Source of the DNA: a virus | Length of the DNA stretch: 21,215 nt | Direction: 5' to 3' (one strand) | UHGV virus genome: UHGV-1726252 | In this document: in pieces, positions 1-16,974 of the stretch | Layout: each line of letters begins with the position of its first letter | Position numbering within the stretch: position 1 is the stretch's first letter | Notes under the pieces: model-generated | Told to the model about the DNA's origin: nothing | Databases searched by the model: none | The model's input: only the letters and a program-made list of their open reading frames with translations | Position numbers and translations under genes: made by a program

Positions 1-51
1 ACCGTCATGGGGTGTCGGGGGTCGGAGGTTCAAATCCTCTCGTGCCGACCA
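1..51 (+). tRNA. 3' portion of a tRNA-Pro gene (anticodon GGG); the 5' part lies upstream of the window
   Basis: T-arm GGAGG-TTCAAAT-CCTCT, acceptor 3' strand CGTGCCG, discriminator A and encoded CCA at 49-51. Anticodon loop ATGGGGT (7-13) gives U33 and anticodon GGG. The T-arm and acceptor match the enterobacterial tRNA-Pro (proL-type) sequence as I recall it. Confidence 0.75.
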
Positions 52-63
52 AAAACTCCTTTA

Positions 64-92
64 AGAACCAGCCTTTATGGCTGGTTTTTTTA
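64..92 (+). terminator. Intrinsic terminator downstream of the tRNA
   Basis: Inverted repeat AACCAGCC / GGCTGGTT with a short loop, followed by TTTTTTTAT, starting about 15 nt after the CCA end. Confidence 0.6.
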
Positions 93-181: not shown

Positions 182-571
182 TCACATCACCGGGCAGTCA
201 TCAAACTCCGCGTTCCTGGCATCATTAATGATGTACGTGATCACCCCGAATATAGCGGGTGCAGAACTGTAACCGTCATCATCTACTGGCAACGCCTCCC
301 TTCTCCCGTTCTCCAGATTAACCAGGTGGGGTTGAGGATGAGTCCGATATCGCTTGATCCTGAATTCCCCGTCTATCGCACATATCAGCAGCGAGCCATC
401 ACAGGCTGAAAGTGAGGCATCAACAACAAGCAGCGCCCCCTGAATTATCCCTTCCCTGAAATGTGAACGCGATGCACGCATGAAATAAGTCGCTGCGGGC
501 TGGCTGATTAACTGCTGATCGAGGGAGATTCGTGTTTCAACATAATCTGCAGCAGGTGAAGGAAAGCCCAT
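182..571 (-). CDS. umuD: UmuD'-like protein (S24 LexA/UmuD family) that begins at the position of the UmuD post-cleavage N-terminus; no umuC partner
   Basis: The product from the ATG at 571 starts MGFPSPAADYVE and aligns end to end with UmuD/MucA-type proteins from the conserved GFPSPAADYVE motif onward. AAGGAG sits 6 nt upstream of this ATG. The Lys of the Ser/Lys dyad is retained (EFRIKR) but the GDSM motif is degenerate (ASRSHF). The track ORF extends 6 codons further to a GTG at 589, which lies inside the LexA box. Confidence 0.8.
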   Translation of the reverse strand: MGFPSPAADYVETRISLDQQLISQPAATYFMRASRSHFREGIIQGALLVVDASLSACDGSLLICAIDGEFRIKRYRTHPQPHLVNLENGRREALPVDDDGYSSAPAIFGVITYIINDARNAEFDDCPVM

Positions 572-586
572 GATCTGCACTCCTTT

Positions 587-606
587 CACTGTTTTTATAT
601 ACAGTA
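587..606 (-). promoter_or_regulatory. LexA (SOS) box overlapping the promoter of the umuD'-like gene
   Basis: Minus strand reads TACTGTATATAAAAACAGTG, a canonical CTGT-N8-ACAG palindrome, about 15 nt upstream of the SD/ATG. A TTGATC -35-like hexamer lies 17 nt upstream of the TACTGT half-site. From memory it is nearly identical to the E. coli umuDC operator. Confidence 0.8.
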
Positions 607-663: not shown

Positions 664-3027
664 TTATTTGAATTTACGAATCAACAACTGAGTGATCCGC
701 ACCGTCCTGGCAATGTTTCTCGTTGCGTAAACTCCGCCAATAATCCCACCGCCGCAGAACTTCCCCTTCGTCCAGTCTCCCGTATAGTTCAGGACAGGGG
801 TGTCGATAGTCTCCCACCCGTCGTAGACCTTAACGGTCTGAGTTGTAGGCGAGGTTTTTTCGCAGCGGATGAGGAACTTTCTTGCCCTATCGGTGGGACT
901 ATAAACATCGTCTATCCCGGCCTGGATCTGAGGATAGGGAGCGGAACCCTGGTATGGATAGCGCAGCTGTAGCAGGTTAAATGTTTTCGACGTGGCATAC
1001 AAAAGCAGGCAATTATCCTCCTGATAATTATCTGCAGCTCCCGAGTTTCGGTTGAGGGACTTCCCGCCAAAGAAAAGAAAACCCGTATCCGTGTCGAAGA
1101 AGCCCTCAACCAGGATTTCAACTTTGTCACCTACCTGTCCAATATCAGCGCAGTTTGTGCCGTCAAACATCTCAGGATTCATGAACGCCACGCGGTTATT
1201 TGTGGCATCCGCCTCGAAGCGGAAATCGAGAGGCCCGGTTTTCTCCAGCGCATTCACCTGAATATAATTTGGCGCGCCGTAGTTGTTCACGTAGCCAAAG
1301 GTGTCCCTGGCCTTCCAGAACGGATTGAACTCAAACCAGCCGCCCCAGAATGCCCCGAGAACTGTCGCCGATGGCGCGATCACCTGGATACGGTTAAGCC
1401 CGTATTTCAACTTGGTAAGATAGAATGGACGGTCTGTCGCGTTGATGGCTGCTTCGTTCTCTCCGGTGTCCGGAAGCTCTTTATCGTAATAGGCGGAAGA
1501 GTTACCGAGTGAAAAGACCCTCACGCGCGGCAGCTGGTCGGCTGCATATGTAGATCCAATATTGCTGTTGCCAAAATTGCGGTATATCAGGGAATCCTGA
1601 TTACCCTCGCTCCACACGAAGAAGTCAAAGATAACCTCGCTCGCCACATAGTCTGCGGCCTGGATGTACCAGATCCGCGGGAACCGCGAGTATTTATATC
1701 CCTCCGACCCCGTATCAGGAACCCAGCTGGAATTGTAGTCCTTCGAATATCGCATCCGGCTGTCCATCCAGCAGATACGCTCAATATCAGTACCGTAGCA
1801 GCGAAGAATGTCAGGCATAAACGACTGAGCGACAAAGGACGCTTTCATCGCATGGCCAACGTCCCCCCAGTGCAGGCCGTCAGGCTGGAGTTCATACTGG
1901 TTGGAGTAATCGCTGTTTTTGGACATCCATGTTTTTTGCATGAAGTCCTGATCGATAATGGACACCCCCAGCACCTCCGCCATGTATTTTTTCGCGGCAT
2001 CGATCTGGGCTGCAGCTTCTTCATTGTCACGCCCGGAAGTACCAGAGTTCCAGCCGTTGTAGGAGCGCCAGTTTGCATCGCAGGTCGTTAGTACGGGTGT
2101 GGCGCCGGCTGCGATAACCTTCTTCATGACCTCGATTGTTTGCGCGATATGCTCGGTGATTTTATTTCCTGCGTCTGTAATATCGTTCAGCCCGAAGCTG
2201 ATGATCACGATATCCGGGTTAGAAGGAATATAGGGGTTTTGCAGGACGATTTTATCAAAGTAATAATTTACCCAGCCGTTCTGCATTTGCTGGCCGGAAT
2301 ACCCGGCGTTATAAACGCTAATGTTGTTGTTACGATGGTACTGCCGAAGGATTGTCTGCAGTCTGGCACACCATGCATTGGGCGCTTCTGCGTTATGGTC
2401 ACTGTTGGCCAGAGGTGCAGTGGCCCACGGGAAGCCAGTTACAGGCGTGGTGGGGTTTGCCGTCCACCCCGTGGAGCCATTACCATCACCGGTCGAATCG
2501 GCTATGCTGGTAATAATAACCGTCTCTCCGGCATGCATTTTTGCTGCCCAGTAATCCAGGGTTTTAATATGTCCCTGAAATAATGGTGCCGCAGCACTGA
2601 GAATTAACTGCCGAAGAGAGGCATCGCCTACGGAGACAAAATGGGAAGAGTCAGTTGTATCCCACGAAGTTTTTGTTGTCCCGGCTGTTTTATAAGGTGG
2701 TTTGGTACCAGCAGACAGCTTATAGAATTCACCGTCATAACGAATCAGCTCATTGTATTCAGAGACAGTAATTATGCCGTCTTCATAATCTCCAATTACG
2801 TCATAGCCCGCATTTTCAATAAAGGTGCGAAATCGCGTTTCCTGATCAGCTATCTGATTATTGAAGTCATATTCCATTCCACTCCACGATTTACGTATCC
2901 GACCCAGCCTGTCGGTCCATGTTTTGTTGGTAATTCCATTTACCGCCTGATCCAGGTTCTGAGCGTTATCACGTAAATCGCGTGGGTCAGTTGAACCCGG
3001 CGGGTTAAGAGTGTTGTATGGTGCCAT
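664..3027 (-). CDS. Tailspike / side tail fibre protein with a central SGNH (GDSL-like) esterase domain, a probable receptor-modifying (deacetylase-type) enzyme
   Basis: 787 aa from the ATG at 3027, which has GGAG 10 nt upstream. All four SGNH blocks are present in order: SIADSTGDG (Ser block), YNAGYSGQ (Gly block), ISFGLNDI (GxND), DGLHWGDVGH (DxxH). The N-terminal ~130 aa resembles conserved fibre attachment domains. The track ORF extends 15 codons upstream across a terminator and is not taken as real. Confidence 0.8.
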   Translation of the reverse strand: MAPYNTLNPPGSTDPRDLRDNAQNLDQAVNGITNKTWTDRLGRIRKSWSGMEYDFNNQIADQETRFRTFIENAGYDVIGDYEDGIITVSEYNELIRYDGEFYKLSAGTKPPYKTAGTTKTSWDTTDSSHFVSVGDASLRQLILSAAAPLFQGHIKTLDYWAAKMHAGETVIITSIADSTGDGNGSTGWTANPTTPVTGFPWATAPLANSDHNAEAPNAWCARLQTILRQYHRNNNISVYNAGYSGQQMQNGWVNYYFDKIVLQNPYIPSNPDIVIISFGLNDITDAGNKITEHIAQTIEVMKKVIAAGATPVLTTCDANWRSYNGWNSGTSGRDNEEAAAQIDAAKKYMAEVLGVSIIDQDFMQKTWMSKNSDYSNQYELQPDGLHWGDVGHAMKASFVAQSFMPDILRCYGTDIERICWMDSRMRYSKDYNSSWVPDTGSEGYKYSRFPRIWYIQAADYVASEVIFDFFVWSEGNQDSLIYRNFGNSNIGSTYAADQLPRVRVFSLGNSSAYYDKELPDTGENEAAINATDRPFYLTKLKYGLNRIQVIAPSATVLGAFWGGWFEFNPFWKARDTFGYVNNYGAPNYIQVNALEKTGPLDFRFEADATNNRVAFMNPEMFDGTNCADIGQVGDKVEILVEGFFDTDTGFLFFGGKSLNRNSGAADNYQEDNCLLLYATSKTFNLLQLRYPYQGSAPYPQIQAGIDDVYSPTDRARKFLIRCEKTSPTTQTVKVYDGWETIDTPVLNYTGDWTKGKFCGGGIIGGVYATRNIARTVRITQLLIRKFK

Positions 3028-3043
3028 TGTATTTCTCCAGCAT

Positions 3044-3066
3044 AAAAAAACCCGCCGGAGCGGGTT
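3044..3066 (-). terminator. Intrinsic terminator between the J-like gene and the tailspike gene
   Basis: Minus strand ACCCGC-TCCG-GCGGGT followed by TTTTTTT, ending about 15 nt before the tailspike SD. Confidence 0.75.
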
Positions 3067-3084
3067 ATGCAATTAAGGGTGTTT

Positions 3085-6000
3085 TCAGGAGACATCGCCG
3101 GGGTAGCTGGCGTCATCGTACTTATATTTATCGGGATGGTACTGAATGGCTGAAATACTGCTGGTCCCATCACCTCCGGGAGAAATCTCGCCAACCAGCG
3201 CGTCATACCCGACACGGGATGACGAACAGAACAGCAGGCGAGGCGGCTCAATGTACGGACTGTCCATCGCCCATTCTTCCGGTGCCAGCGCGGCGCTGTA
3301 TGGAATACGCAGGGTGTAATCATCGATGCGCGTCGGAACCTGCAGCGGCGACGCCCGGCCGTCCTGGTGGCGGATCACCACCCGCGGATTTGGAAAACTC
3401 CAGTCCGGCGGTTCGCTGACTGTCAGGGTGATCGCAGTGCTGTCCCATTCCATGTCAGTTATCAGGCAGCTCAGCGTCTGGTTGCCGGGAATGTCGTCAG
3501 TGAGGATGATCCGGTCCATAAACTGGTAGCACAGCGCATCCATTTCAGTGCTGGTCGTATGCTGCAGGCGCTGCAGCTGGTAGCCGCGCAAACGGCGCAT
3601 GCCAATGCGGTACGCCCGGTCCTGATCCACAACCCCCTCCAGTTTGTAATCTTCCACCTTCACTGGCGTAGAGTTTCCGGGCTGACGGCACTGTACGGTT
3701 TCTTCTGCCCAGGTCGTGCCGTTGATATACGTCACATCCACGCCGTCATAATCGTCCTGGCTCGGAGCCTTGAAGGCCGTCTGCAGCTCTTCAGTCGTCT
3801 CCTGGGGAGTGATCATCCCGGTCCAGTTTTTCACTCCTTCTCTCCCGGCGGAAACCAGTCCATCTGACAGAAGGAAGTATCCCATCCCTGCGCCGGTAAT
3901 GATTTTCAATACCTCGAGCGCAGACTTGCTGTCCCCGGTGGCCCAGTCGAACGTTTCCCCGCGGGGGGTCCACCAGGTCTGTTCGAGCGCGTCAATCGCT
4001 GCGCGGTCAATCTGTTCAGGGCGGAAACCCAGAGATTCCAGGACATGGTACAGCGCCCCGCTGATGCTGCGTGAAGGGTGTCCGTTATATAGCCGTGTGG
4101 GAATGACGTTAACGCGGCGATCGGACTGGGCCGCCAGTCGGTTACCGGTTCGTACCGTCAGCGCAAGAGTGGTCACGCCTGCATAGCTCCCCGGGCGTTT
4201 GCTCAACCGCGAGCGCATCGCCTGCCAGTAAAGGTTGTTCACCGTCCTGGCACCGCCAATTTTCGTCGTACGCCGCACGCGGACCTCATACTGTGCGGCC
4301 GGCAGCCCGCTGATGCGCCGGGTATAACCGTGGCCATCTGCGGTTTTGTTGGTGAAGTTATACACCACCTGCGACCAGGCTCCCGAAGTGGCTGCATTAC
4401 GGTACTGAACCAGCACCCGCACAGTATGCGACTGCGGATCCCCGTTCTTTTTGTACTGGATGTGGCCGTTGGGGAAAATGAAGTTATTTTCGATGGCCGT
4501 GGTTGTTTCTCCGTCCGGGCAGGCAAGGAAGGGGCCGAGCCAGGCATAATCATCATTCACGCCGGTGACCTGGGCATCGAGCAGCGTACGCTCGGTGAAC
4601 CCTGGCCATGCCGGATCCACGGTGACGACATCATTACCACTGGTGTCCTGGGTGACGACCACCCGCTCAACCGTGATGGTCTGATCATCAATATCGGTAA
4701 TGCGGAACTGGCCGTCGGCGTAGCCGATACCGATCCGCTGAACGCCATCAGGGATACCGGTGAAAGGCTTGCCTGTGGCATTGTCATACGCCAGCGTGAT
4801 ATTTGCCTCAACCGCCGCGGTACCGCCCGTCGAGGCCACCCCGGTAACATCTACCGTAGCGCTGCCGAATACGGAGACCGGAAGAGCGCTGTGACTGATG
4901 GCCCCCCCGGCAAACGGGCTGCTTTCCTCGGCAATCTGCAGCCGGCCACCAGTATCGCGCGCGATCAGGCCGGAACCGGTGAGCTGGTTTGATATGGTAT
5001 TAACCAGTCCGGACATCGTGACGTAACTGGTAATGAGTGAGATAGCATACGTCGTGCCTTTCCAGCCGATCGTGAACGTAACCGGCGTTGCCGTGAAATC
5101 GTACGTGGTGGGCGCGGCGCTGGCGGTAATGCTCGCTGTCGAACCACCCACCCCGGGCACCGCCGGAACGCCTGCTGCGTAACTGGCGATATACAGATCA
5201 TAAGCCGACTCATTAAACGTCACCGAGACAGGCATGCCTGCAGCTGGCCGTAGCTCAGCAACATCACCATAAATCACGCTGTACCCGCCGGCATTGGCAA
5301 CCCGGTAGGAGTTTGGTGCTACTACCGTGATTACTGTGCCAACAACCCAGGCCGCCGGGATCTCCGTTTCACCGTCGCTGGCCGTGGCCGCAATCAGGGA
5401 AAGAGTGTTACCGCTCACCAGAATGGCATCAGAGATGATACTGACCGTCTGCGGGCCGGTTGAGCCGAGGTCGAGGCCTGCGGTACCCGAAGTGGTATTC
5501 CCCACCTCGCCGCTGTTGAACCAGTTCTCGGAACGACTATCGGCCGCAACGCTGGCACCCGGTGGATAGATGGTGGCGCTGACATCACTGCCGAACGCGG
5601 ATGCTGGCGTGGAGCCAATGCGTATCGCCGACGCGGGCAGTGCCATGTCGCCCACCCCCACGCATAAAAACATGCTGGTCACGTATTTTTTGGGATCGGC
5701 GGAATCGAAGCGCGAAACCGGCTGGACGACGTAATCCGGCCACACCTTATAGCGACCAAATATCTCCCGGATGGGATCGCCCAGTTTTGCCATATTGGCC
5801 TTTGCAGGGTTGAGCTCGAGTTGATCCCCGTTGCCGGGCTGGCTGGCGCCGCCGGTCTGCATGGTGCTCATCATGTAGATGGAGTAGGCGGCAGAGGCGA
5901 CGGCTATTGCCACTGCCGTCCAGACCAGCCAGGCTGGCGCCGCCGGGCCAAACGGAACGGGATACAGGCGTACATCATCATCCGGTGCGATAATCTGCGC

Positions 6001-6177
6001 ACTCCACTCATTCGGAGGGATAGACACACCATTCAACTCCAGCGCCACCGGGTGGGTCATGTCAGGCTGCCAGCCCTGCACGTTTCTGGTGAACCAGTCG
6101 GCAATGGTGGTGCTGGCGTGCTGATGCGACTCCAGCGGTTCGCCTTCGATTCGGGAGGGATAAATTCGGATCGTCAC
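3085..6177 (-). CDS. Central tail fibre / host-specificity protein, lambda gpJ-like core with an extra N-terminal module and no lambda-type C-terminal receptor-binding domain
   Basis: 1030-aa ORF starting at a GTG that overlaps the K-like stop (GTGA), with GGAG 8 nt upstream. Residues ~110-700 show gpJ-like stretches (for example VRVLVQYRN...YEVRVRRTT against lambda RLLVQIQRN...FNIRMRRMT, from memory). The first ~75 aa end in YPVPFG and are followed by a ~25-residue hydrophobic segment. Confidence 0.8.
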   Translation of the reverse strand: MTIRIYPSRIEGEPLESHQHASTTIADWFTRNVQGWQPDMTHPVALELNGVSIPPNEWSAQIIAPDDDVRLYPVPFGPAAPAWLVWTAVAIAVASAAYSIYMMSTMQTGGASQPGNGDQLELNPAKANMAKLGDPIREIFGRYKVWPDYVVQPVSRFDSADPKKYVTSMFLCVGVGDMALPASAIRIGSTPASAFGSDVSATIYPPGASVAADSRSENWFNSGEVGNTTSGTAGLDLGSTGPQTVSIISDAILVSGNTLSLIAATASDGETEIPAAWVVGTVITVVAPNSYRVANAGGYSVIYGDVAELRPAAGMPVSVTFNESAYDLYIASYAAGVPAVPGVGGSTASITASAAPTTYDFTATPVTFTIGWKGTTYAISLITSYVTMSGLVNTISNQLTGSGLIARDTGGRLQIAEESSPFAGGAISHSALPVSVFGSATVDVTGVASTGGTAAVEANITLAYDNATGKPFTGIPDGVQRIGIGYADGQFRITDIDDQTITVERVVVTQDTSGNDVVTVDPAWPGFTERTLLDAQVTGVNDDYAWLGPFLACPDGETTTAIENNFIFPNGHIQYKKNGDPQSHTVRVLVQYRNAATSGAWSQVVYNFTNKTADGHGYTRRISGLPAAQYEVRVRRTTKIGGARTVNNLYWQAMRSRLSKRPGSYAGVTTLALTVRTGNRLAAQSDRRVNVIPTRLYNGHPSRSISGALYHVLESLGFRPEQIDRAAIDALEQTWWTPRGETFDWATGDSKSALEVLKIITGAGMGYFLLSDGLVSAGREGVKNWTGMITPQETTEELQTAFKAPSQDDYDGVDVTYINGTTWAEETVQCRQPGNSTPVKVEDYKLEGVVDQDRAYRIGMRRLRGYQLQRLQHTTSTEMDALCYQFMDRIILTDDIPGNQTLSCLITDMEWDSTAITLTVSEPPDWSFPNPRVVIRHQDGRASPLQVPTRIDDYTLRIPYSAALAPEEWAMDSPYIEPPRLLFCSSSRVGYDALVGEISPGGDGTSSISAIQYHPDKYKYDDASYPGDVS

Positions 6178-6737: not shown

Positions 6738-7226
6738 CTACTGCAGGTAACGAAGTCCCGGGAAGTCCGGCAGCGTGTAACGGTAGCGCGGCCATGACGT
6801 ATCGAGAATGTTCATGTAGCCGGCGGTGATCTGCACCTCCGTTGCTGTCCAGGAACCCTCTTTAATCGCGAGGGTGAACGGGGGAGCTGCGGGTGCTGAC
6901 AGATCGGTGGAGACGTACCGTCGAAAGGTCAGTGATGCATTGCTCAAATTGTCGAGCGCATTACGGATCGCCGTTGATACAATGCCGTCGATATTGCTGA
7001 TGGCGAATTTTAGATCCTGCGTGCCGTCGGCGTTGCGCGCTGGCAGCGCCACATCAATGGCAGAACCGGTGAATGTCGCCTCGCTGCCCGTTTCCAGGGT
7101 AACAGTTATGTCATCCCATCCGCGGGTCAGCCAGTAATCCTGACCACCAACGGTGATTTGTAGCGTGTCCAGGATGACCTCATCACCACCGGATGCGTAA
7201 AGCCGGTTGAGAACCGCACTGGTCAT
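6738..7226 (-). CDS. Tail tip protein, gpL-like N-terminal domain, Cys-free
   Basis: 162 aa from the ATG at 7226 (AAGGAG upstream; ATGA overlap with the M-like stop). VILDTLQITVGGQDYWL resembles lambda gpL VVLWEIDLTEVGGERYFF as recalled. The track start at 7238 is a GTG with no usable SD spacing. Confidence 0.6.
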   Translation of the reverse strand: MTSAVLNRLYASGGDEVILDTLQITVGGQDYWLTRGWDDITVTLETGSEATFTGSAIDVALPARNADGTQDLKFAISNIDGIVSTAIRNALDNLSNASLTFRRYVSTDLSAPAAPPFTLAIKEGSWTATEVQITAGYMNILDTSWPRYRYTLPDFPGLRYLQ

Positions 7227-7684
7227 GCTTCGGGCCACTCCTTATTCAGCGCCAGATCGATAATGTCAGAACCAGCCACCATCTCGGGAAATAATCCCCA
7301 ACCTGGCGGCAATAGTGGCCGTTCCCACAATTCCAGCGTTGCGGTAAATTGCCAGAATTTACCGCTTGCCAAAATTGGGCCCTGATAAATATCTACAAAA
7401 CGACACTTATAAGGTTGAATCCCCAAAGGAGTTTTAAGGCGCATATAAAACCAGGCAACACCATCTGTAAGAGCGTCCCGAAACCATGCCTCAAATAACT
7501 GGGCTTCATTATCTCTCTTAAATGACCATTTCACGCTCGCTTGCGTAGGAACCGAGCTATAAATTCGGCGTTGCCTGGAACGGCCTGAGGTTAATTTGGT
7601 ACGAAGAAAAGGACTTATGGGCTCGAGCCCAAAACCATCTTTTAATGGGATCGGTAATTCTTTAGGGTAGAAAATATCAGCCAT
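7223..7684 (-). CDS. Distal tail protein, gpM-like
   Basis: 153 aa immediately after the tape measure gene, with a start/stop overlap (TAATG). Weak pattern similarity to lambda gpM. Base composition is clearly more AT-rich than neighbouring genes. Confidence 0.5.
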   Translation of the reverse strand: MADIFYPKELPIPLKDGFGLEPISPFLRTKLTSGRSRQRRIYSSVPTQASVKWSFKRDNEAQLFEAWFRDALTDGVAWFYMRLKTPLGIQPYKCRFVDIYQGPILASGKFWQFTATLELWERPLLPPGWGLFPEMVAGSDIIDLALNKEWPEA

Positions 7685-10377
7685 TATCTAGCCTTCCTTT
7701 TTGCGTACATAACATTAACCGCGTCATGAACTTTCCCCTGCCCTTTCGACAAGCTATTTACGACCATGTCAAAGCCCTGGGTCGCCCCGCGTTTCACAGC
7801 CGCTTCCATCATCGCAATTGTACGTGCATCAGGATCACCATTAACCTGAATGGTTGGTGAATAATTGAATTGACCCTGCATTGCGTTATTTTCACGTTGT
7901 TTTTGAATATCGGTGAGAGTCGCATCCAATTTTGCTGAGGTATTAGACTTAACGACTCGCTCTCCTTGTTGAAGCAACCAAGTCCCCGTCGCTGGAACCT
8001 TATCAAGACCATCGTGAGCCATACCCATCAGAGAGGCGGCTGATATGGCCGCAACCATTGGCGATGTTACTGCCGCAGCCGCAGCCATCGCAGCGGGTGC
8101 GAGCGCTGGCCCCACGATAGGGATCGCCGCAGTAGAAGCGTAGGCATTTAATTGGGCCATTAATGCACTGGCTGTGGCATTGCTGGTCATTGCGGCTGCG
8201 GCTGAAGCTTGGGTGCCTTTACCAACCATTAGCTGAACAGCCTGGTAAACGAGCCATTGAGCAGCCATTTGCGACAGGGTCTGAATAACCGTCTCGCCCA
8301 TGCTGGAGAACATATTCCCGAATGCATCACCGACAGATTTCGCTTGGGTGATAATTCCGCTAAAAGCATTAGCCATTGAATTAGTTGTTTGATTAAGTAA
8401 CGAAGATGCTGCGTTAGCAGCCGTCAGGTTATAGTTAGAAGCTTCATCGGCGAAATTCGCCATGGATGTTAAGGCACCAGCCTGCCAGTTCTGCCTGATC
8501 GCATCCTGCTGACCGTAGTAATTCCTGAGCGCGGTCAACTCATTCTGATAGCCTTTATCGCTTTCATTGCCGCCCGAATTTTTCCAGCCCTGAAGGAGTT
8601 GGGCCTCTTCAAGACGGCGCTGTGCCTGACGACTGCTCATGCCAGCACTATCGGCCAGCGCGCGGGTTTTCTCACCCATCTGGGTCACATATTTCTGAGA
8701 TGAGTCCTGCAGGCGGTTGAGGCGTTCCTGAATGACGATCTGATCTCCCAATCCGGCATTGATCTCCGCCTGGGCGAGCACCTTGTCTTTGCTGGCGAGC
8801 ACTGATTTTTCATCATCAGTGAGTACGCGATTTTTCGCAGCTTGCTCGAGTACAGTGAATTTGGCCTGCTCTTTCCATAACTGCTGCCGCTGCAGGCTGA
8901 TCTTGTCGTTGATTCCAGTATGCTGCCGTAAAACCTCCAGTTGAGTTTGCAATTCCAGAGTCTGAGCACTGGTACTGTCGGTAAGCTTCGTTCCACCCGG
9001 CGTCCTGACTTTCGTCGGTTTCTTCAGCGAGTCCTCATATTCCTTTCTCGCCGCGGCCAGATTGATGTTGTAATCAGCCTGAAGGATCCTACCTTCTTTC
9101 AACGCTTTGTTCAGTTCGTTCTGGCGATCGGTGTACTTCTCCAGAGCCGTCTGCGATTTGCTGTAATTCGCCTGGGCCTGTTGCGCGTACTTGAGGCGAT
9201 CGGCTTCCAGTCCTGCCTCACGGGTAGCGCTTTCCTGGGCGAGTTGAGAATTGCGTGCCTGTTGCTGCGCCATATCCAGCGCCTGGCGGGTTGTCTCACG
9301 GTCATTCCAGAAGCGGGCGCGCGCTTCATCGTTGACATAACGATCGCCCTTTCGCAAATCCCAGATTTCATCCGCCCGCCTGAAGGCCGCCTCTGCCTTG
9401 CTCAGCATTTCCTGAGAGGTATCCGGCCTGCCGATATCCAGCGCCGCATCCCACATGGATTTAAAGGCATTTTTCAGAGAGTCCGCAGCGGATTCAATCG
9501 AGCCCATGTTGTCGCGGATACTGGCAGTCTGCTTGTTGAACCCGGCGGTTGCTGCTTCGTTTGCCGCCTGTAGAGCCCCTGCTTCATTTCCTGAGCGCTG
9601 CAGAGCGGCAACATATTCAACCTGTTCAGCCGTGACATTGTGAAACTGCTGCGCCATCGCCAGCAGCCCTGACGCCGGATCGTTGACCATGCGTCCAAAT
9701 GCTTCGGCCACCTTATCGACCGGCAGACCGGATGCATCTGTGAATTTCGCAACCGAGATCGCAAGCCCTTCAAAGTTAGCACCCGCGCGAACGCCAGCGT
9801 TAACTAGTGCCGTCAATGCCTGACTGGTCTGATTGAAAGTTAATCCCGCTTTTTCGCCGGCTGCTGCAATAGTTTGCATACGGACTGCAGTGAGCCCGGC
9901 AGTGTTCCCGGTGAGCACCAACGTTTTATTGAATTCGGATAATGTACTTGATCCCTGATAGTACGAGTACATCAGCGCCGCGGTGCCAGCGGTTAACGCA
10001 CCAACGCCCAGCATTACAGGTGAGATTGAACTGGCAAGACCAACCAGCATTGGTCGAATCCCGCCAAACATGTCTTTTACCTGCCCGCCCTGCTGGAGCA
10101 GAATCAGCCAGGGGTTCTGCCCCCCTGCTAACTGTGTGGCAACATCCGTAAACTGTGCAGGCAACATGCGCATAGCATTGCTGTACTGCCCTACGGACAA
10201 GCCCGCTCTTTTTGCTGCTACTTCATGGCGGGTAAAGGACTTTTGGACCTGAAGGGCAGCGTCATTTGCGGCCTGACCAGTGCCTTTGAGCTGCTTATTT
10301 ACACGATTAACCTGCTCCGTGAATTTAGTCGAATCAACATCCAGATTTACTATCAGGTCACCCACTGACTGGGCCAT
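7684..10377 (-). CDS. H: Tail tape measure protein (gpH-like)
   Basis: 897 aa, Ala/Gln-rich with long predicted helical stretches and a hydrophobic Ala/Gly-rich segment near the C-terminus. Sits after G/T and before the tail tip genes; its start overlaps the T ORF end by 20 nt. Confidence 0.9.
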   Translation of the reverse strand: MAQSVGDLIVNLDVDSTKFTEQVNRVNKQLKGTGQAANDAALQVQKSFTRHEVAAKRAGLSVGQYSNAMRMLPAQFTDVATQLAGGQNPWLILLQQGGQVKDMFGGIRPMLVGLASSISPVMLGVGALTAGTAALMYSYYQGSSTLSEFNKTLVLTGNTAGLTAVRMQTIAAAGEKAGLTFNQTSQALTALVNAGVRAGANFEGLAISVAKFTDASGLPVDKVAEAFGRMVNDPASGLLAMAQQFHNVTAEQVEYVAALQRSGNEAGALQAANEAATAGFNKQTASIRDNMGSIESAADSLKNAFKSMWDAALDIGRPDTSQEMLSKAEAAFRRADEIWDLRKGDRYVNDEARARFWNDRETTRQALDMAQQQARNSQLAQESATREAGLEADRLKYAQQAQANYSKSQTALEKYTDRQNELNKALKEGRILQADYNINLAAARKEYEDSLKKPTKVRTPGGTKLTDSTSAQTLELQTQLEVLRQHTGINDKISLQRQQLWKEQAKFTVLEQAAKNRVLTDDEKSVLASKDKVLAQAEINAGLGDQIVIQERLNRLQDSSQKYVTQMGEKTRALADSAGMSSRQAQRRLEEAQLLQGWKNSGGNESDKGYQNELTALRNYYGQQDAIRQNWQAGALTSMANFADEASNYNLTAANAASSLLNQTTNSMANAFSGIITQAKSVGDAFGNMFSSMGETVIQTLSQMAAQWLVYQAVQLMVGKGTQASAAAAMTSNATASALMAQLNAYASTAAIPIVGPALAPAAMAAAAAVTSPMVAAISAASLMGMAHDGLDKVPATGTWLLQQGERVVKSNTSAKLDATLTDIQKQRENNAMQGQFNYSPTIQVNGDPDARTIAMMEAAVKRGATQGFDMVVNSLSKGQGKVHDAVNVMYAKRKAR

Positions 10378-10666
10378 AGCGCACTCCTCCCAGGCTTTCC
10401 GCCGCAGACATCATCACATCGTCATCCATCGGTAAGGTATCCTGCTCAGGTGGGTTAAGCAGGCTAAAATCACGGGGCGTAAATTCGGCTTTTGAACACA
10501 GCATTGAAACCATAAGATGGCTGAGACGGGAGAAATGGGTGTCCAGAAGATCGCCTTCAAAATACTGCTGCTGATAGTAACGCCCCCATTCAGCCAGCTC
10601 GGACGATGACATGCCGGCAAGCATGACGCGCCAGTCGGGGCGCCGAAACTCGCGCGCCAGCTTCAT
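10358..10666 (-). CDS. T: Tail assembly chaperone T segment, probably expressed only as a G-T fusion by -1 frameshift
   Basis: ORF in the -1 frame relative to G (from track coordinates). By my reading the frame stays open upstream across the 3' end of G. The position matches lambda G/GT. Confidence 0.65.
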   Translation of the reverse strand: MKLAREFRRPDWRVMLAGMSSSELAEWGRYYQQQYFEGDLLDTHFSRLSHLMVSMLCSKAEFTPRDFSLLNPPEQDTLPMDDDVMMSAAESLGGVRYGPVSG

Positions 10667-10686: not shown

Positions 10687-11097
10687 CTAATGCTTTTCCG
10701 CGCTGATGGGCTCGTCTTCCGTCACTACGTCTGTACTTTTCTCTTCGTCCGCCGGTACCGGTTCCGATACAGGGATCATGTCAGAAAGCGTTTTCACAAA
10801 AAGTTCGCCAGCGCCAATCATTCCCGGCGGCCAGCCGGACAGCACTTCATAATGCAGAGAATCGATCTCTTTAGAGGTGTCCCCCTGCCATAGCGATAAC
10901 GCGATCACCATCGCGCCGCTCCGGAGATTGCTGCTAACCCGTAACGGGAGATATCCCTCATCACCTTCGTCTTTCGGCAATGTTTTTTCTTCCTTCGCCA
11001 GGTATTGCAGATATTCAATACGTTGCAGGCCAGACAACTCAAACAACTGGATGGTGCTGCCGTTATAGGTGAACGGCTCAGATTTCAGAAAGCTCAT
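10687..11097 (-). CDS. G: Tail assembly chaperone G
   Basis: 136 aa; N-terminus MSFLKSEPFTYNGSTIQLFELSGLQRIEYL closely resembles lambda gpG (MFLKTESFEHNGVTVTLSELSALQRIEHL as recalled). Acidic C-terminus. Confidence 0.85.
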   Translation of the reverse strand: MSFLKSEPFTYNGSTIQLFELSGLQRIEYLQYLAKEEKTLPKDEGDEGYLPLRVSSNLRSGAMVIALSLWQGDTSKEIDSLHYEVLSGWPPGMIGAGELFVKTLSDMIPVSEPVPADEEKSTDVVTEDEPISAEKH

Positions 11098-11137
11098 GGA
11101 GTACTCCAGGAAAATGACGGGGCCAGCGCCCCGCCTG

Positions 11138-13514: not shown

Positions 13515-15461
13515 TTACTTACCGGATGATTTCGCCAGGCCGCGATAATCCAGCGGCGCCACACCAGCATCGATGCGGACTTTCGTCGCAACACCATCAG
13601 TGGTGAAACCTTCCTGCTGGTCGATGTACGGGGCATCAATGCCATTGAGGTACGCCACTTCGATGGTATCGGTGCCCTGTGCGGCAGCCAGATACCAGGC
13701 CGCCGGGTCGGCGTCATCCAGACGCGCTTCTGCGATCACTTCGGCAAAGTTCTGCAGCGGGTTCACCACGCCGGCATTGATATCAGCCCCTTTCACGCTT
13801 GCTGACTTAATGGTCTGGCTGGCTAATGTTTCCAGACCCACCGGAACCAGCATGTAGGCCGGACGAATGTTCAGGGCGCGCTCGCCCTCTTTCTGCTTGC
13901 GCATGTTCTGGCGGGCCTTATCCAGGCTGTCAACGCTGATGGCGCCAGCTGAAAGGTTGGCATGGTCAGCATGGAAGAGCGCCTTGCCATCTGAAAGTTT
14001 CCCGTTACCGGTCAGCACGGCGTAGACCAGGTCACCGATAGTGGCTTTTGCAGCGCGGCCCATCTTCATCGGAACGTCAGTCAGCTGGTTCAGGTCATCG
14101 TTGATAATGGCCTGGCGGGTGATGGAGAAGATCTCACCGTAAGTAGCCAGCGCGATGGTTTCACCCTTATCCTGCGTGGTGATGTACTTATACTCCGCGC
14201 CCTCTCGCACCTGACGCAGGGACGGGAAGCCCCCCATGCCGACGCGATGCGCCGTTTTGAAGTCAGAGAGCTGGCCTTTTTTGGTCCAGAGTTCAAAGGT
14301 CTCTGCCGCTTCATCCCAGCCCTGCAACAGCGCTTTGTTGGCGACATCGAGCAGGATATTGCCAAAATCGGAGGTGCTGTGCGTCAGCGCAAAACCGACC
14401 ATCTGCATCGGGTTGTAACTGGAGACCCCGATGCCGCGCTCGGTCAAGGACATGCGGGCGTATTCGCGCAGCGTCATACCGTTATAGACGTTGTCACGCT
14501 CAACATTTTCATAACCGGCACGCGCCATCAGCGCCTGGCGGATCCCGTCGCCAACAAAGTTACCGTTCCCGGCATACACATGGGCCTGCCCCTGCGTAGT
14601 GGTGTTGGACGGCGTGGCATTTTTACCGAGCTCTGCCAGAAGAACATCTTTCGCCTGGCTGACCGAGCACTCTGGATCGGCAATACATTTAGCCTGCAGC
14701 TCCTGATGCTTTCCGCCGAACATGGCGAAGAGATCCTGAATACCGTTCACGCGTGCCTTTTGCTCCGCAATAACCTGCGCACGGATATCAGTTTCGCTGG
14801 CACCTGCCGCCGGAGCCGGCTGGGTGACAGTTGGCTGCTGTGTTTCGCGCGTAGCGGTATTGCGCGGCGGGGTGACCATGTTGCGAATGCTGTTTGGCAT
14901 CTTTTCAAATTCCTCAATACGTTTCGAATGGATGCAGGCCATTGCCTGCAAGGATGGTGTGACCTGGTCAGCGAAGCCCAGCTCCAGACATTCAGTGCTG
15001 GAGAGCCAGGTCTCTTCCTCCAGCATTGCCGCAATTTCTTCGGTGCTTTTTCCCGTCTTCTGCGCGTATGCCGGGATCAACACCGACTCCATTTTGTCGA
15101 GCAGGTCGGCGTAGTCGCGCATGTCATCAGCATCACCACCCGCAAAACCCCACGGCTTGTGGATCATCATCATGGTGTTTTCCGGCATGATGACCGGGTT
15201 TCCTACCATGGCGATGACTGATGCCATTGAGGCAGCCAGACCGTCGATATAAACGGTGATCGCCGCGCCGTGGAATTTCAGGGCATTAAAAATGGCGATA
15301 CCGTCAAAGACATCGCCACCAGGGGAGTTGATATGCAGTTTGATGTGGGTGACATCGCCCAGCGCCTTAAGGTTTGCGACGAACTGCTTCGCCGTTACCC
15401 CCCAGTAGCCGATCTCGTCGTAGATGTAGATTTCGGCTTCGTTTTCCGAACTGGCCTGCAT
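13515..15461 (-). CDS. Fused prohead protease (ClpP/S49-like) and major capsid protein (HK97-fold type)
   Basis: Single ORF. N-terminal ~200 aa carry a ClpP/S49-like serine protease signature (EIYIYDEIGYWG, HINSPGGDVFDG, GLAASMASVI, MIHKPW). A Pro/Ala/Gln-rich linker follows, then a ~330-aa capsid-like C-terminal region. Start uncertain: ATG at 15461 (11 nt after the portal stop, chosen here) or ATG at 15545 (overlapping the portal 3' end). The track extension to 15806 is rejected. Confidence 0.85.
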   Translation of the reverse strand: MQASSENEAEIYIYDEIGYWGVTAKQFVANLKALGDVTHIKLHINSPGGDVFDGIAIFNALKFHGAAITVYIDGLAASMASVIAMVGNPVIMPENTMMMIHKPWGFAGGDADDMRDYADLLDKMESVLIPAYAQKTGKSTEEIAAMLEEETWLSSTECLELGFADQVTPSLQAMACIHSKRIEEFEKMPNSIRNMVTPPRNTATRETQQPTVTQPAPAAGASETDIRAQVIAEQKARVNGIQDLFAMFGGKHQELQAKCIADPECSVSQAKDVLLAELGKNATPSNTTTQGQAHVYAGNGNFVGDGIRQALMARAGYENVERDNVYNGMTLREYARMSLTERGIGVSSYNPMQMVGFALTHSTSDFGNILLDVANKALLQGWDEAAETFELWTKKGQLSDFKTAHRVGMGGFPSLRQVREGAEYKYITTQDKGETIALATYGEIFSITRQAIINDDLNQLTDVPMKMGRAAKATIGDLVYAVLTGNGKLSDGKALFHADHANLSAGAISVDSLDKARQNMRKQKEGERALNIRPAYMLVPVGLETLASQTIKSASVKGADINAGVVNPLQNFAEVIAEARLDDADPAAWYLAAAQGTDTIEVAYLNGIDAPYIDQQEGFTTDGVATKVRIDAGVAPLDYRGLAKSSGK

Positions 15462-15471
15462 ACGGAACCAG

Positions 15472-16974
15472 CTATTTTTTGCCTGGGCTTTCGGGCGGTT
15501 CTTTACCCGGTTTTGCTTCCTGGACACGAGTGTCTCCTTTGTCATTTGCCGGGTCGGTATCAAACACCAGCCCCTGTTTACGGTTCTCGTCAACCTCCGC
15601 CTTACGGCGGCGCTTAACATCATCAGGATTTGCGCCGCGGGCGCGCACCCATTCACTCTCTGTCGCAGCACCGCCACGCAGCAGAATTTTCCAGGCGTTC
15701 GCCTCTTTGACCGGGTCAATCCAGGGCATAACGGGCCCGGAGAACACGGCGCTAAAGAGCGTGGCTTTATCGACATTTTTCGGGACCGTGATCTCGCCTG
15801 AAGCAATCGCCATCCTGAGCCAGGCCCGGTACATAGGTCGTGTGATCGCCGCGATGAATGCGTCCTGAAGAATGAAATAGCCTTCGGTTGACTCCACCAG
15901 CTCCTGGCGCTGCGCGCTGTATGTTCCGTCGTAGTTACGGGCGATACTTGAAAAGCTACCGCGCGAACCAGCGGCTACAGCACGTAGCTGGCTATTACGG
16001 AAAGTTTCGAGGTTGGGATTTGGTCGGTCTGACTTGATCATGCCGATGTCTTCACCCGGGCGGAGATCGTCAAACAGCATGCCGGGCTCGATGTTTAGCT
16101 CCCTTTGACCGCTGCTGCCTTCGTCATAAGTCTGGCCATCACCTTTTTTAATGAACATGCCCAGTGCCGCAGCAATGCGGGCAGCGGTCAGTTCGGCGTC
16201 CTCGTACTCCTTCAGCGCCGAAAGACGCATCAGCACCCCGGCAAGCAGTGAGTTACCCCGGATTTGATGCAGGCGGCGCATGAACTTCAGGTGAAGCATA
16301 TTCTCCGCCTGAATATCCTTGGTATCTCCCTGGCGCATGCCTTCCGCCGGAAGGTTTTTGTAGACCATGTATCGGGTCGGGCGGCCCCAGTCATTCAGGT
16401 AAATGCCCTGGCATAACTTCTGACCCGGCTCTGTCCGCTCCATCGGCACAAAATCCGGTTCCAGAGCCTCAATCCAGAAAGGAATGTCTGCCACCGGCGA
16501 CAGACCGTTCCCGGTGCCACTGACCAGCTGCGCGAACACCTCGCCGTCACGTAACCAGGTCCGGCACATCAGGCGCTCAAGCACTGGTCGGGTAAACTGC
16601 CCGGTAACATCGGGAGAAACGGACCACTCCGCCCATTTGGCGCGGATCTGTGTAGCAAGGTCAGTAGCGATGCCCCCGTTACTCATCAGGGGCTGCGGCT
16701 CCACGATGATGCCTTTTGCCCCCACAATGCGCTCTTCGAGTTTATCAAGGAGGCCGATCACCAGATCGTGGTTACAGTCAAGCCACCGGGCTTGTTCGCG
16801 CAGCGATCGCCCGCCGAATTGCGTCAACTGATTCGCGGAGCGGTTTTCGCGTTTTGCCCGGTGCGTCCGGGTAGGAATGACAGCCTCATATGCCTGGATC
16901 ATCAGGCGCGACTTCAGGCGCTCCGCTTTCCAGCCCGGGGAAAACATGCCTATCAGATTATCCAGGGCGCTCAT
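15472..16974 (-). CDS. Portal protein (lambda gpB family)
   Basis: 500 aa, located between W and the protease/capsid gene. ATGA overlap with the W stop. Basic/acidic C-terminal tail. Confidence 0.9.
   Translation of the reverse strand: MSALDNLIGMFSPGWKAERLKSRLMIQAYEAVIPTRTHRAKRENRSANQLTQFGGRSLREQARWLDCNHDLVIGLLDKLEERIVGAKGIIVEPQPLMSNGGIATDLATQIRAKWAEWSVSPDVTGQFTRPVLERLMCRTWLRDGEVFAQLVSGTGNGLSPVADIPFWIEALEPDFVPMERTEPGQKLCQGIYLNDWGRPTRYMVYKNLPAEGMRQGDTKDIQAENMLHLKFMRRLHQIRGNSLLAGVLMRLSALKEYEDAELTAARIAAALGMFIKKGDGQTYDEGSSGQRELNIEPGMLFDDLRPGEDIGMIKSDRPNPNLETFRNSQLRAVAAGSRGSFSSIARNYDGTYSAQRQELVESTEGYFILQDAFIAAITRPMYRAWLRMAIASGEITVPKNVDKATLFSAVFSGPVMPWIDPVKEANAWKILLRGGAATESEWVRARGANPDDVKRRRKAEVDENRKQGLVFDTDPANDKGDTRVQEAKPGKEPPESPGKK

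Follow-up and report, generated by a model that had tools for sequence, protein, structure and literature searches.

Tailspike gp63.1 of phage G7C, the closest structurally solved relative of the protein treated here, deacetylates the O-antigen of Escherichia coli 4s without cleaving its backbone; infection requires this protein, and host mutants deficient in acetylation resist G7C (reviewed in PMC10743462). Similarly, the tailspikes of the Shigella phages B2 and Moo19 hydrolyse 4-nitrophenyl acetate, and entry of these phages depends on modifications of the lipopolysaccharide (LPS) O-antigen, O-acetylation included (PMC11654681). SGNH is the most prevalent enzymatic domain in the receptor-binding proteins (RBPs) of Klebsiella prophages, and two of these proteins were active on pNP-acetate; esterase tailspikes have in this way recently proved frequent in enterobacterial prophages (PMC13123978). 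The reference list of PMC10743462 also names the Pectobacterium phages PP99 and Possum for esterase tailspikes, and the Acinetobacter phage Aristophanes was likewise found listed as an esterase-tailspike phage in a literature search. Here we analyze a 21,215-nucleotide (nt) stretch of DNA from the virus genome UHGV-1726252, called the window throughout and always taken at its full length, and in it the gene for a tailspike or receptor-binding protein of 787 amino acids (aa) at positions 664..3027 of the minus strand. The protein encoded is a gp63.1-type esterase module that is borne by a lambda-like temperate siphovirus and joined to an anchor of the type known from phage Sf11. This kind of tailspike is already well described, and the finding fits current understanding and changes none of it; the mildly new points are limited to a conserved hairpin junction between the J gene and the RBP gene and to a map of breakpoints at three levels. 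Taken as a whole, we hold it to be highly probable that this is a virion-borne tailspike of a lambda-like siphovirus that would dock with its anchor at the tail tip, act as a gp63.1-type deacetylase, evolve by exchange of modules and be expressed by transcriptional read-through.

An SGNH/GDSL esterase domain occupies aa ~150-405 (1813..2580, minus strand). As stated in an initial annotation made from the sequence alone, the four motifs SIADSTGDG (aa 174-182), YNAGYSGQ (aa 239-246), ISFGLNDI (aa 276-283) and DGLHWGDVGH (aa 383-392) follow each other in this order in a single minus-strand frame in the middle of the protein, and both the Pfam models Lipase_GDSL_2 (E = 2.7e-11) and Lipase_GDSL (E = 1.5e-7) scored above their curated cut-offs. 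The motifs hold the four ordered blocks that define the SGNH superfamily, that is block I (A176-D177-S178), block II (N240-A-G242-Y-S-G245), block III (G279-L-N281-D282) and block V (D383-G-L-H386). The catalytic triad consists of Ser178 (codon at 2494-2496), Asp383 (1879-1881) and His386 (1870-1872), and the oxyanion hole is formed with Gly242 and Asn281. In an alignment with 29 homologues, with identities down to 21%, residues D177, S178, G182, N240, G242, Y243, S244, G245, F278, G279, N281, D282, D383 and H386 were invariant, and position 176 was the only block position that varied. The Ser, Asp and His of the triad, whose conservation the initial annotation had presupposed, are all present in these 29 sequences. 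An AlphaFold2 model computed from the 29-sequence alignment (mean predicted local distance difference test (pLDDT) of 76, predicted template modelling score (pTM) of 0.73) was confident over aa ~150-787 and displayed the three-layer alpha/beta/alpha flavodoxin-like fold of SGNH hydrolases, and profile search and structure prediction agreed in this way on the central domain. Purifying selection on the SGNH part was strong, with a ratio of non-synonymous to synonymous substitution rates (dN/dS) of 0.06 over aa 144-410.

The SGNH domain is followed by C-terminal beta-sandwich domains (aa 406-787; 667..1812, minus strand), which presumably function in glycan binding and/or trimerisation and which hold the recently recombined patch described below. 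An SGNH domain fused to a C-terminal beta-sandwich is the topology of gp63.1, and G7C gp63.1 (4QNL) was the only solved target that spanned both the SGNH and the C-terminal beta domains of the model. The next structural matches were Gp48/Gp49 of Shigella phage B2 (9d84), Gp09 of SFP21A and carbohydrate acetylesterases. When the single sequence was searched against solved chains, no match to 4qnl was obtained; the profile built from the 29 sequences found 4qnl_A with E = 1.7e-7 over ~345 residues and with the catalytic blocks aligned (GDStDG/GDSITDG, NAGYSG/NCSVSG, FGLND/MGWND and DG..H/DG....H, profile and 4qnl, respectively). Both proteins are tailspikes with an SGNH esterase domain, with about 14-15% identity, but G7C is an N4-like podovirus with another N-terminal attachment region, whereas the window belongs to a temperate lambda-like siphovirus with an anchor like that of Sf11 gp13. 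Identities of 12-14% were observed with the tailspikes of the virulent podoviruses B2 (Gp48/Gp49, PDB 9D84) and Moo19 (gp82), both Schitoviridae of Shigella, and SFP21A (Gp09, PDB 9LNA), whose attachment domains and complex architecture are unlike those of the window protein. The SGNH RBPs of Klebsiella pneumoniae prophages, which were compared by their description, resemble the present case in that temperate phages of Enterobacteriaceae carry an SGNH esterase in place of a depolymerase; in contrast, they are described as tail fibres whose SGNH C-terminus is 'brush-like' and which often have gp11/gp12 domains as well, and their association with capsule types (KL2, KL55 and others) is not transferable to the window protein (PMC13123978). 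Because the fold, the conservation of the catalytic residues and the nearest solved structure (G7C gp63.1) all point the same way, the tailspike is most likely an SGNH esterase of a surface polysaccharide and not a glycosidase, which is what the initial annotation had predicted for the receptor-binding protein.

The N-terminal virion-anchor domain (aa 1-143; 2599..3027, minus strand), a region of low GC content, was recognized by a phmmer match to residues 2-130 of the Sf11 tailspike gp13 (PDB 9occ_G, E = 1.3e-8). Homology to gp13 (PDB 9OCC) extends over the N-terminal ~130-140 residues and includes the hinge ...SVGD.SLR..., which reads FVSVGDASLRQ at aa 130-140 of the window protein. Sf11 gp13 is a tailspike that sits next to a J-like hub at the tip of a siphovirus tail, as is predicted for the window protein; in Sf11, residues 4-59 of three gp13 chains form a bundle with the adaptor helix of a distal tail protein, and six gp13 trimers are present per tail tip (PMC12724387). 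The modules behind the two anchors differ, as Sf11 gp13 continues with a P22/Sf6-like beta-helix endorhamnosidase and the window protein with an esterase. With regard to a trimeric state, the model is that of a monomer; the anchor is homologous to the trimeric anchor of Sf11 gp13, and the N-terminal 142 residues, besides matching gp13, also matched families of tail fibres in PHROG (E = 1.4e-22 and 6.1e-19).

By analogy with Sf11 gp13, the N-terminal ~143 residues would dock the tailspike to the tail tip beside the J-like central fibre. On contact with the host, the tailspike would bind O-acetylated O-antigen or capsule, as its homologues suggest, and the esterase would strip acetyl groups with the backbone left uncut, as G7C gp63.1 does. 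Such a deacetylation may let the phage work its way through to the outer membrane and may set the host range. If this is true, the prophage recognizes its host through an acetyl modification of O-antigen or capsule, with the consequence that resistance could arise by the mere loss of an acetyltransferase, and the host glycan could be typed or de-acetylated with this protein as a ready-made reagent that does not destroy it. The locus also adds a lambda-like siphovirus case with an Sf11-type anchor to a class known from N4-like podoviruses and recently found to be dominant among Klebsiella prophage RBPs.

Several observations weigh against this reading. Block I is ADS, with Ala176, and not the canonical GDS in the window protein and its nearest relatives. 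The N-terminal domain was modelled poorly (pLDDT below about 60 over aa 1-150), and the candidate docking partners orf153, orf184 and J lack sequence similarity to any solved chain, the Sf11 tail-tip proteins included; also, no homologue of the Sf11 docking partner itself, a 457-aa distal tail protein bearing the adaptor helix, could be detected in the window. Finally, neither a Q gene nor a late promoter is present within the window. The altered block I would suit an SGNH domain that is catalytically dead or serves only in binding, so that the protein would be a lectin-like fibre recognizing an acetylated glycan, and lectin-like folds (ERGIC-53, Emp47p, legume lectin) do resemble part of the C-terminus when the model is compared with solved structures. 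We consider such a fibre unlikely, as the nucleophilic Ser, the oxyanion residues and the Asp/His pair are invariant in the 29 sequences under the strong purifying selection noted above, as relatives with GDS, SDS and ADS forms of block I interleave within the homologue family, ADS being tolerated in close relatives, and as related tailspikes are active esterases (PMC11654681, PMC13123978). Another target for an active esterase would be outer-membrane lipid or the acyl chains of lipid A, in the manner of a GDSL lipase or an acyloxyacyl hydrolase, or else O-acetylated peptidoglycan, in the manner of an Ape-like enzyme, and the protein would then aid in penetration of the envelope; we regard this as quite improbable next to an esterase of O-antigen or capsule.

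The true start of the tailspike gene is the ATG at 3027, with a GGAG ribosome-binding site (RBS) at 3035-3038, seven bases ahead of it, and the stop codon is located at 664-666 (minus strand). The mechanically derived open reading frame (ORF; 664-3072) begins with a TTG at 3072 that lies upstream of a terminator-like hairpin and reads through it, and this start was rejected. Counted from the ATG, the length of 787 aa given in the initial annotation is right, but the extension of the gene to 3072 is not. Upstream lies the gene for the J-like central tail-tip protein of the TipJ family (3085..6177, minus strand; 1030 aa; GC 59.5%), assigned by Pfam FNIII-A_GpJ and by NCBIfam attach_TipJ_rel (E = 3e-127). 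In phage lambda, J is followed by lom, stf and tfa. In the related loci L003 and L006-L010, the slot directly after J is kept for an RBP gene.

The position of the gene behind a terminator and at the extreme end of the prophage, beside an SOS-regulated moron and a tRNA-Pro attachment (att) site, would also be compatible with a lysogenic-conversion moron, which would not be part of the virion but be expressed from the prophage, deacetylate the lysogen's own polysaccharide and block superinfection. However, the 57-nt spacer in front of the gene showed no promoter of sigma-70 type, the N-terminus is hydrophilic and without a signal peptide, the N-terminal domain is homologous to the attachment domain of Sf11 gp13 and to PHROG tail-fibre families, and in relatives the same slot is filled by classical tail-fibre and depolymerase modules. 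A role as moron thus appears very improbable. One candidate for a separate tailspike promoter, noticed by eye (TTGCAT-17-TTTTAT), was rejected, being weak and placed such that transcription would start inside the RBS.

The 57-nt spacer between the J stop codon (3085) and the ATG of the tailspike gene contains an intrinsic-terminator-like hairpin, AACCCGC-UCCG-GCGGGUU followed by U7 (3044..3066, minus strand; detected by scan and folding), with the GGAG directly after it. The stem of 7 bp, of which 5 are G-C pairs, carries a UCCG loop and folds with -14.8 kcal/mol (z = -3.7 versus shuffled sequences). A GC-rich stem-loop directly before a U tract on the transcribed strand is what is expected of an intrinsic terminator, and a terminator-like hairpin between the J gene and the tailspike gene, as proposed in the initial annotation, is indeed there. 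Terminator-like sites in 12 kb were not above chance (14 found versus 11.4 ± 3.1 expected). As this class of sites is not enriched, the scan alone proves little, and it is the conservation in relatives that gives weight to the hairpin.

Seven further loci share the order orf~155, DUF1833, orf, J (~1020-1030 aa), a spacer of 52-57 nt and an RBP gene. A hairpin with a U tract was present in all eight J-RBP spacers (8/8, from E. coli, Enterobacter, Leclercia, Klebsiella and Pseudomonas), and it precedes differing receptor-binding modules. The six enterobacterial loci share the stem ACCCGC/GCGGGT and the T run without any change, and the remaining spacer diverges. In the Pseudomonas locus L010, the hairpin is GCCCGC-CUUGA-GCGGGC-U5, in which the outer A-U pair is changed to G-C on both sides and the loop has 5 nt, and in L011, a second E. 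cloacae prophage, a CCCGC...GCGGG-U7 hairpin with another loop lies ahead of an RBP of the SASA family (PF03629). These two divergent hairpins were read and folded singly, as MAFFT had shifted their 5' arm by one column. The position of the element is therefore conserved, and its structure is kept despite change in sequence; as independent changes are few, they make for thin evidence of covariation. The hairpin is a family feature of the J-RBP junction that is independent of the module behind it and not an insertion scar; the initial annotation had read the gene as a foreign cassette behind an internal terminator. Its conservation argues for a function. We know of no conserved terminator-RBS junction of this J-RBP kind in lambda.

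The tailspike gene would be transcribed last in the late operon, through the hairpin that follows J, most likely by Q-type antiterminated read-through. In a lambdoid E. coli prophage that shares head genes with the window at 76% nt identity, the lysis and late genes are preceded by the gene for the antiterminator Q, and it is a reasonable inference that a Q-modified polymerase reads through the hairpin. It is possible, but not what we favor, that the hairpin is mainly an attenuator that sets the ratio of J to tailspike, a stabilizer of the 3' end of the J message or a conserved linker for cassette exchange. Such uses would be in agreement with the homology of Leclercia L008 (85% nt identity through J), which ends at window position 3040, just past the hairpin, with the invariance of the stem in the six enterobacterial loci though the neighbouring spacer diverges, and with a further hairpin between genes V and G of the same operon. 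On the other hand, the features of the hairpin are those of a canonical terminator (GC stem, UNCG-type loop, U5-U7) and are kept in Pseudomonas with a two-sided change of the outer pair, and an attenuator would be odd in front of a protein that is needed in more copies than J, the Sf11 stoichiometry being 18 versus 3 (PMC12724387). Attenuation, stabilization and linker function are compatible with read-through by a Q-modified polymerase and not mutually exclusive with it. A farther-reaching proposal, which we consider rather doubtful, is that the junction of hairpin, U tract and RBS constitutes a dedicated portable boundary element, used from Enterobacteriaceae to Pseudomonas, which would insulate the receptor-binding slot and supply a crossover point, while C-terminal patches (codons ~360-720) would retarget the deacetylase, both together making up a two-tier cassette system for host range.

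Mosaicism is evident at the phylogenetic level, as both the esterase module and the anchor are also combined with unrelated partners. The module (aa ~144-787) occurs with 56-93% identity behind unrelated N-termini, namely P22 head-binding (PF09008), TSP1/gp66 (PF18668) and T7 fibre (PF03906) domains, and also in 875-888-aa forms of E. coli and Enterobacter and in Pseudomonas. Conversely, the anchor (aa 1-143) precedes S74-chaperone, pectate-lyase and beta-helix modules in Klebsiella, Enterobacter, Leclercia and E. coli prophages with 44-64% identity. An exhaustive search with the module alone returned 263 clusters at 50% identity, 95 of them at E <= 1e-30, and in most of the listed matches the module is C-terminal and preceded by about 100-450 variable residues. 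The anchor stays with this J-type tail, podovirus- and myovirus-type anchors also carry the esterase module, and exchange of C-terminal patches continues. The tailspike gene as a whole was found in no complete E. coli genome, the best match being 79-80% nt identity over aa ~144-787. Searches of species-representative genomes with the single protein and then with a 16-sequence alignment gave no close relative, only matches of 27-30% identity in Enterovibrio and in a metagenome-assembled genome of Enterobacterales, and among phage records the best match, to Aeromonas phage ZPAH34, was merely 28% identical.

At the DNA level, breakpoints were located at window positions 3040, ~2595, ~1950 and ~870. 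Leclercia L008 is 85% identical through J to position 3040, where homology is lost. Two E. coli prophages, one P22-like and the other of a different podovirus-type organization, match the window with 79% identity from 2598/2591, which corresponds to aa ~144-146 just past the hinge, to the stop codon, and in the P22-like prophage (L001) the match continues past the tailspike gene to the start of the HumD gene (window 569). With the closest relative, L003, the window shares a practically identical stretch of about 2.85 kb (~4800 to ~1950), which comprises half of J, the spacer and the anchor as well as most of the SGNH domain. Between ~1950 and ~870 (compared with L003 8001-10364), identity falls to 73-89%, and from 870 to 600 it is ~100% again. 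Between window and L003, the synonymous divergence (dS) amounted to 1.1 with dN/dS of 0.06 for codons 411-787, and dS reached 1.9 with dN/dS of 0.04 for codons 411-600. By these values, a diverged but functional C-terminal allele has been patched into an otherwise identical gene. Comparison of the sequences therefore indicates that module exchange is real and ongoing and that its units are sub-genic, with limits at the hairpin/RBS, at about aa 144 and around a patch of codons ~360-720. The initial annotation had called the gene an exchanged host-range module; the mosaic bears this out, but what is exchanged does not coincide with 'the gene behind the terminator'. The breakpoints at the hairpin/RBS, at the hinge (aa ~144) and at the C-terminal patch may serve as practical guides for the engineering of chimeric receptor-binding proteins.

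Two of the related loci showed further peculiarities. Pseudomonas sp. L010 (GCA_030450835.1, 1888-7337) has the same layout of DUF1833, orf, J, hairpin and SGNH-RBP, with an esterase module about 70-75% and an anchor 51% identical to those of the window, which is unusually close across bacterial orders. P0003, the relative of 875 aa, is encoded on the contig of L011 (Enterobacter cloacae GCA_020889425.1, 8067-12628); immediately 3' of this SGNH protein gene there is one for a reverse transcriptase (PF00078, 495 aa), and beyond it follow a second, convergent J-like gene, the terminator hairpin and a 688-aa RBP of the SASA family (PF03629, sialate O-acetylesterase-like). In this last case, a different esterase family occupies the same slot.

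The base composition of the tailspike gene is not uniform. At a mean GC content of 55.3% for the window, the anchor (aa 1-150) has 45.1% GC and a GC content at third codon positions (GC3) of 0.40, the esterase part (aa 151-410) has 51.8% and 0.60, and the C-terminal part (aa 411-787) has 51.7% and 0.63, as compared to 59.5% and 0.69 for J and to ranges of 46-59% and 0.42-0.72 for the other late genes. The 450-nt stretch of the anchor falls on the 1.7th percentile among all 450-nt windows. The low-GC island is therefore the anchor and not the enzyme, and the esterase module resembles other late genes. The initial annotation had contrasted a GC content of about 40% in the 5' region of the gene with about 65% in J, and its figures are exact for the lines it cited (39.2% for 2701-2820 and 68.3% for 4561-4620), but these lines are local extremes. 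Analysis by GC content and codon position does show a composition that is not uniform, owing to the low anchor, but the proposed compositionally foreign cassette could not be upheld, as the anomaly is confined to aa 1-150 and the module with its GC3 of 0.60-0.63 is not deviant next to other late genes at 0.55-0.72. A fall in GC content after J is also seen in related loci that carry other modules.

A second low-GC island (7215-8081; 43.8%) is equally deep, with its minimum at 7311-7760, and covers orf153, which stands at the position of a distal tail protein, and the 3' end of the tape-measure gene. The idea that the two troughs, anchor and orf153, represent a co-acquired docking pair was rejected, as the anchor of L003 is identical to that of the window but its orf153 only 72% identical; also, relatives of orf153 in related loci vary independently of the anchor, and their GC content is normal (52-58%).

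The large genes of the window are all on the minus strand and make up a late operon of the lambda type. The head genes are those for a small terminase (DUF1441), a large terminase (gpA type), a lambda-family portal and a ClpP-capsid fusion, and they are followed by the tail genes Z, U, V (tube), G, T, tape measure, orf153, DUF1833, orf184, J and tailspike. The tailspike gene is the last structural gene of this operon, two features away from the probable att site. With lambdoid late operons the window shares the order of head and tail genes, a terminator-like hairpin inside the operon and a HumD moron with an SOS box beside att. This moron, a gene for a HumD/UmuD-like S24 peptidase (182-571, minus strand; NCBIfam HumD equivalog, E = 3.7e-67), sits between the tailspike gene and the att site, and a pattern match upstream of it revealed a LexA-box-like or SOS-type operator CTGT-N8-ACAG (CTGTATATAAAAACAG; 589-604, minus strand). 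A umuC-like partner of the HumD-family gene was not visible. The 5' part of the moron travels with the 3' end of the tailspike gene: ~100 nt of its 5' region are also present behind the RBP genes of L006, L007 and the E. coli P22-like prophage L001, with 80-110 nt of this flank kept in L006 and L007.

The left end of the window (1..51, plus strand) is the 3' part of a tRNA-Pro gene, identified by BLAST and ending with CGTGCCGACCA at position 51. Window positions 1-74 matched tRNA-Pro-annotated regions in 5426 of 5426 complete E. coli genomes, and the truncated fragment was not called by ARAGORN or Rfam. It is probably the attachment site of the prophage, which puts tailspike and moron at the very end of the latter. 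Behind the fragment, at about 72-100, lies a hairpin bordered by runs of A and T. The close relative L003 adjoins genes with Pfam domains of the dacD/sbmC/yeeA/pdu type instead of tRNA-Pro, and the same tail-end block thus occurs at different integration sites.

Some minor observations concern the remainder of the operon. Another GC-rich hairpin, GGCGGGGC-GCUG-GCCCCGUC (11116-11135, minus strand; -18 kcal/mol), with a weak U tract separates V, the major tail gene, from the chaperone gene G. The 763-aa ORF of the ClpP-protease/major-capsid fusion (TTG start at 15806; region 13515-16974, minus strand) overlaps the portal ORF by 335 nt, so that its listed start is probably over-extended. Also, the T ORF (10358-10666) lies just 3' of G (10687-11097), which is the arrangement expected for a lambda-like G/GT frameshift.

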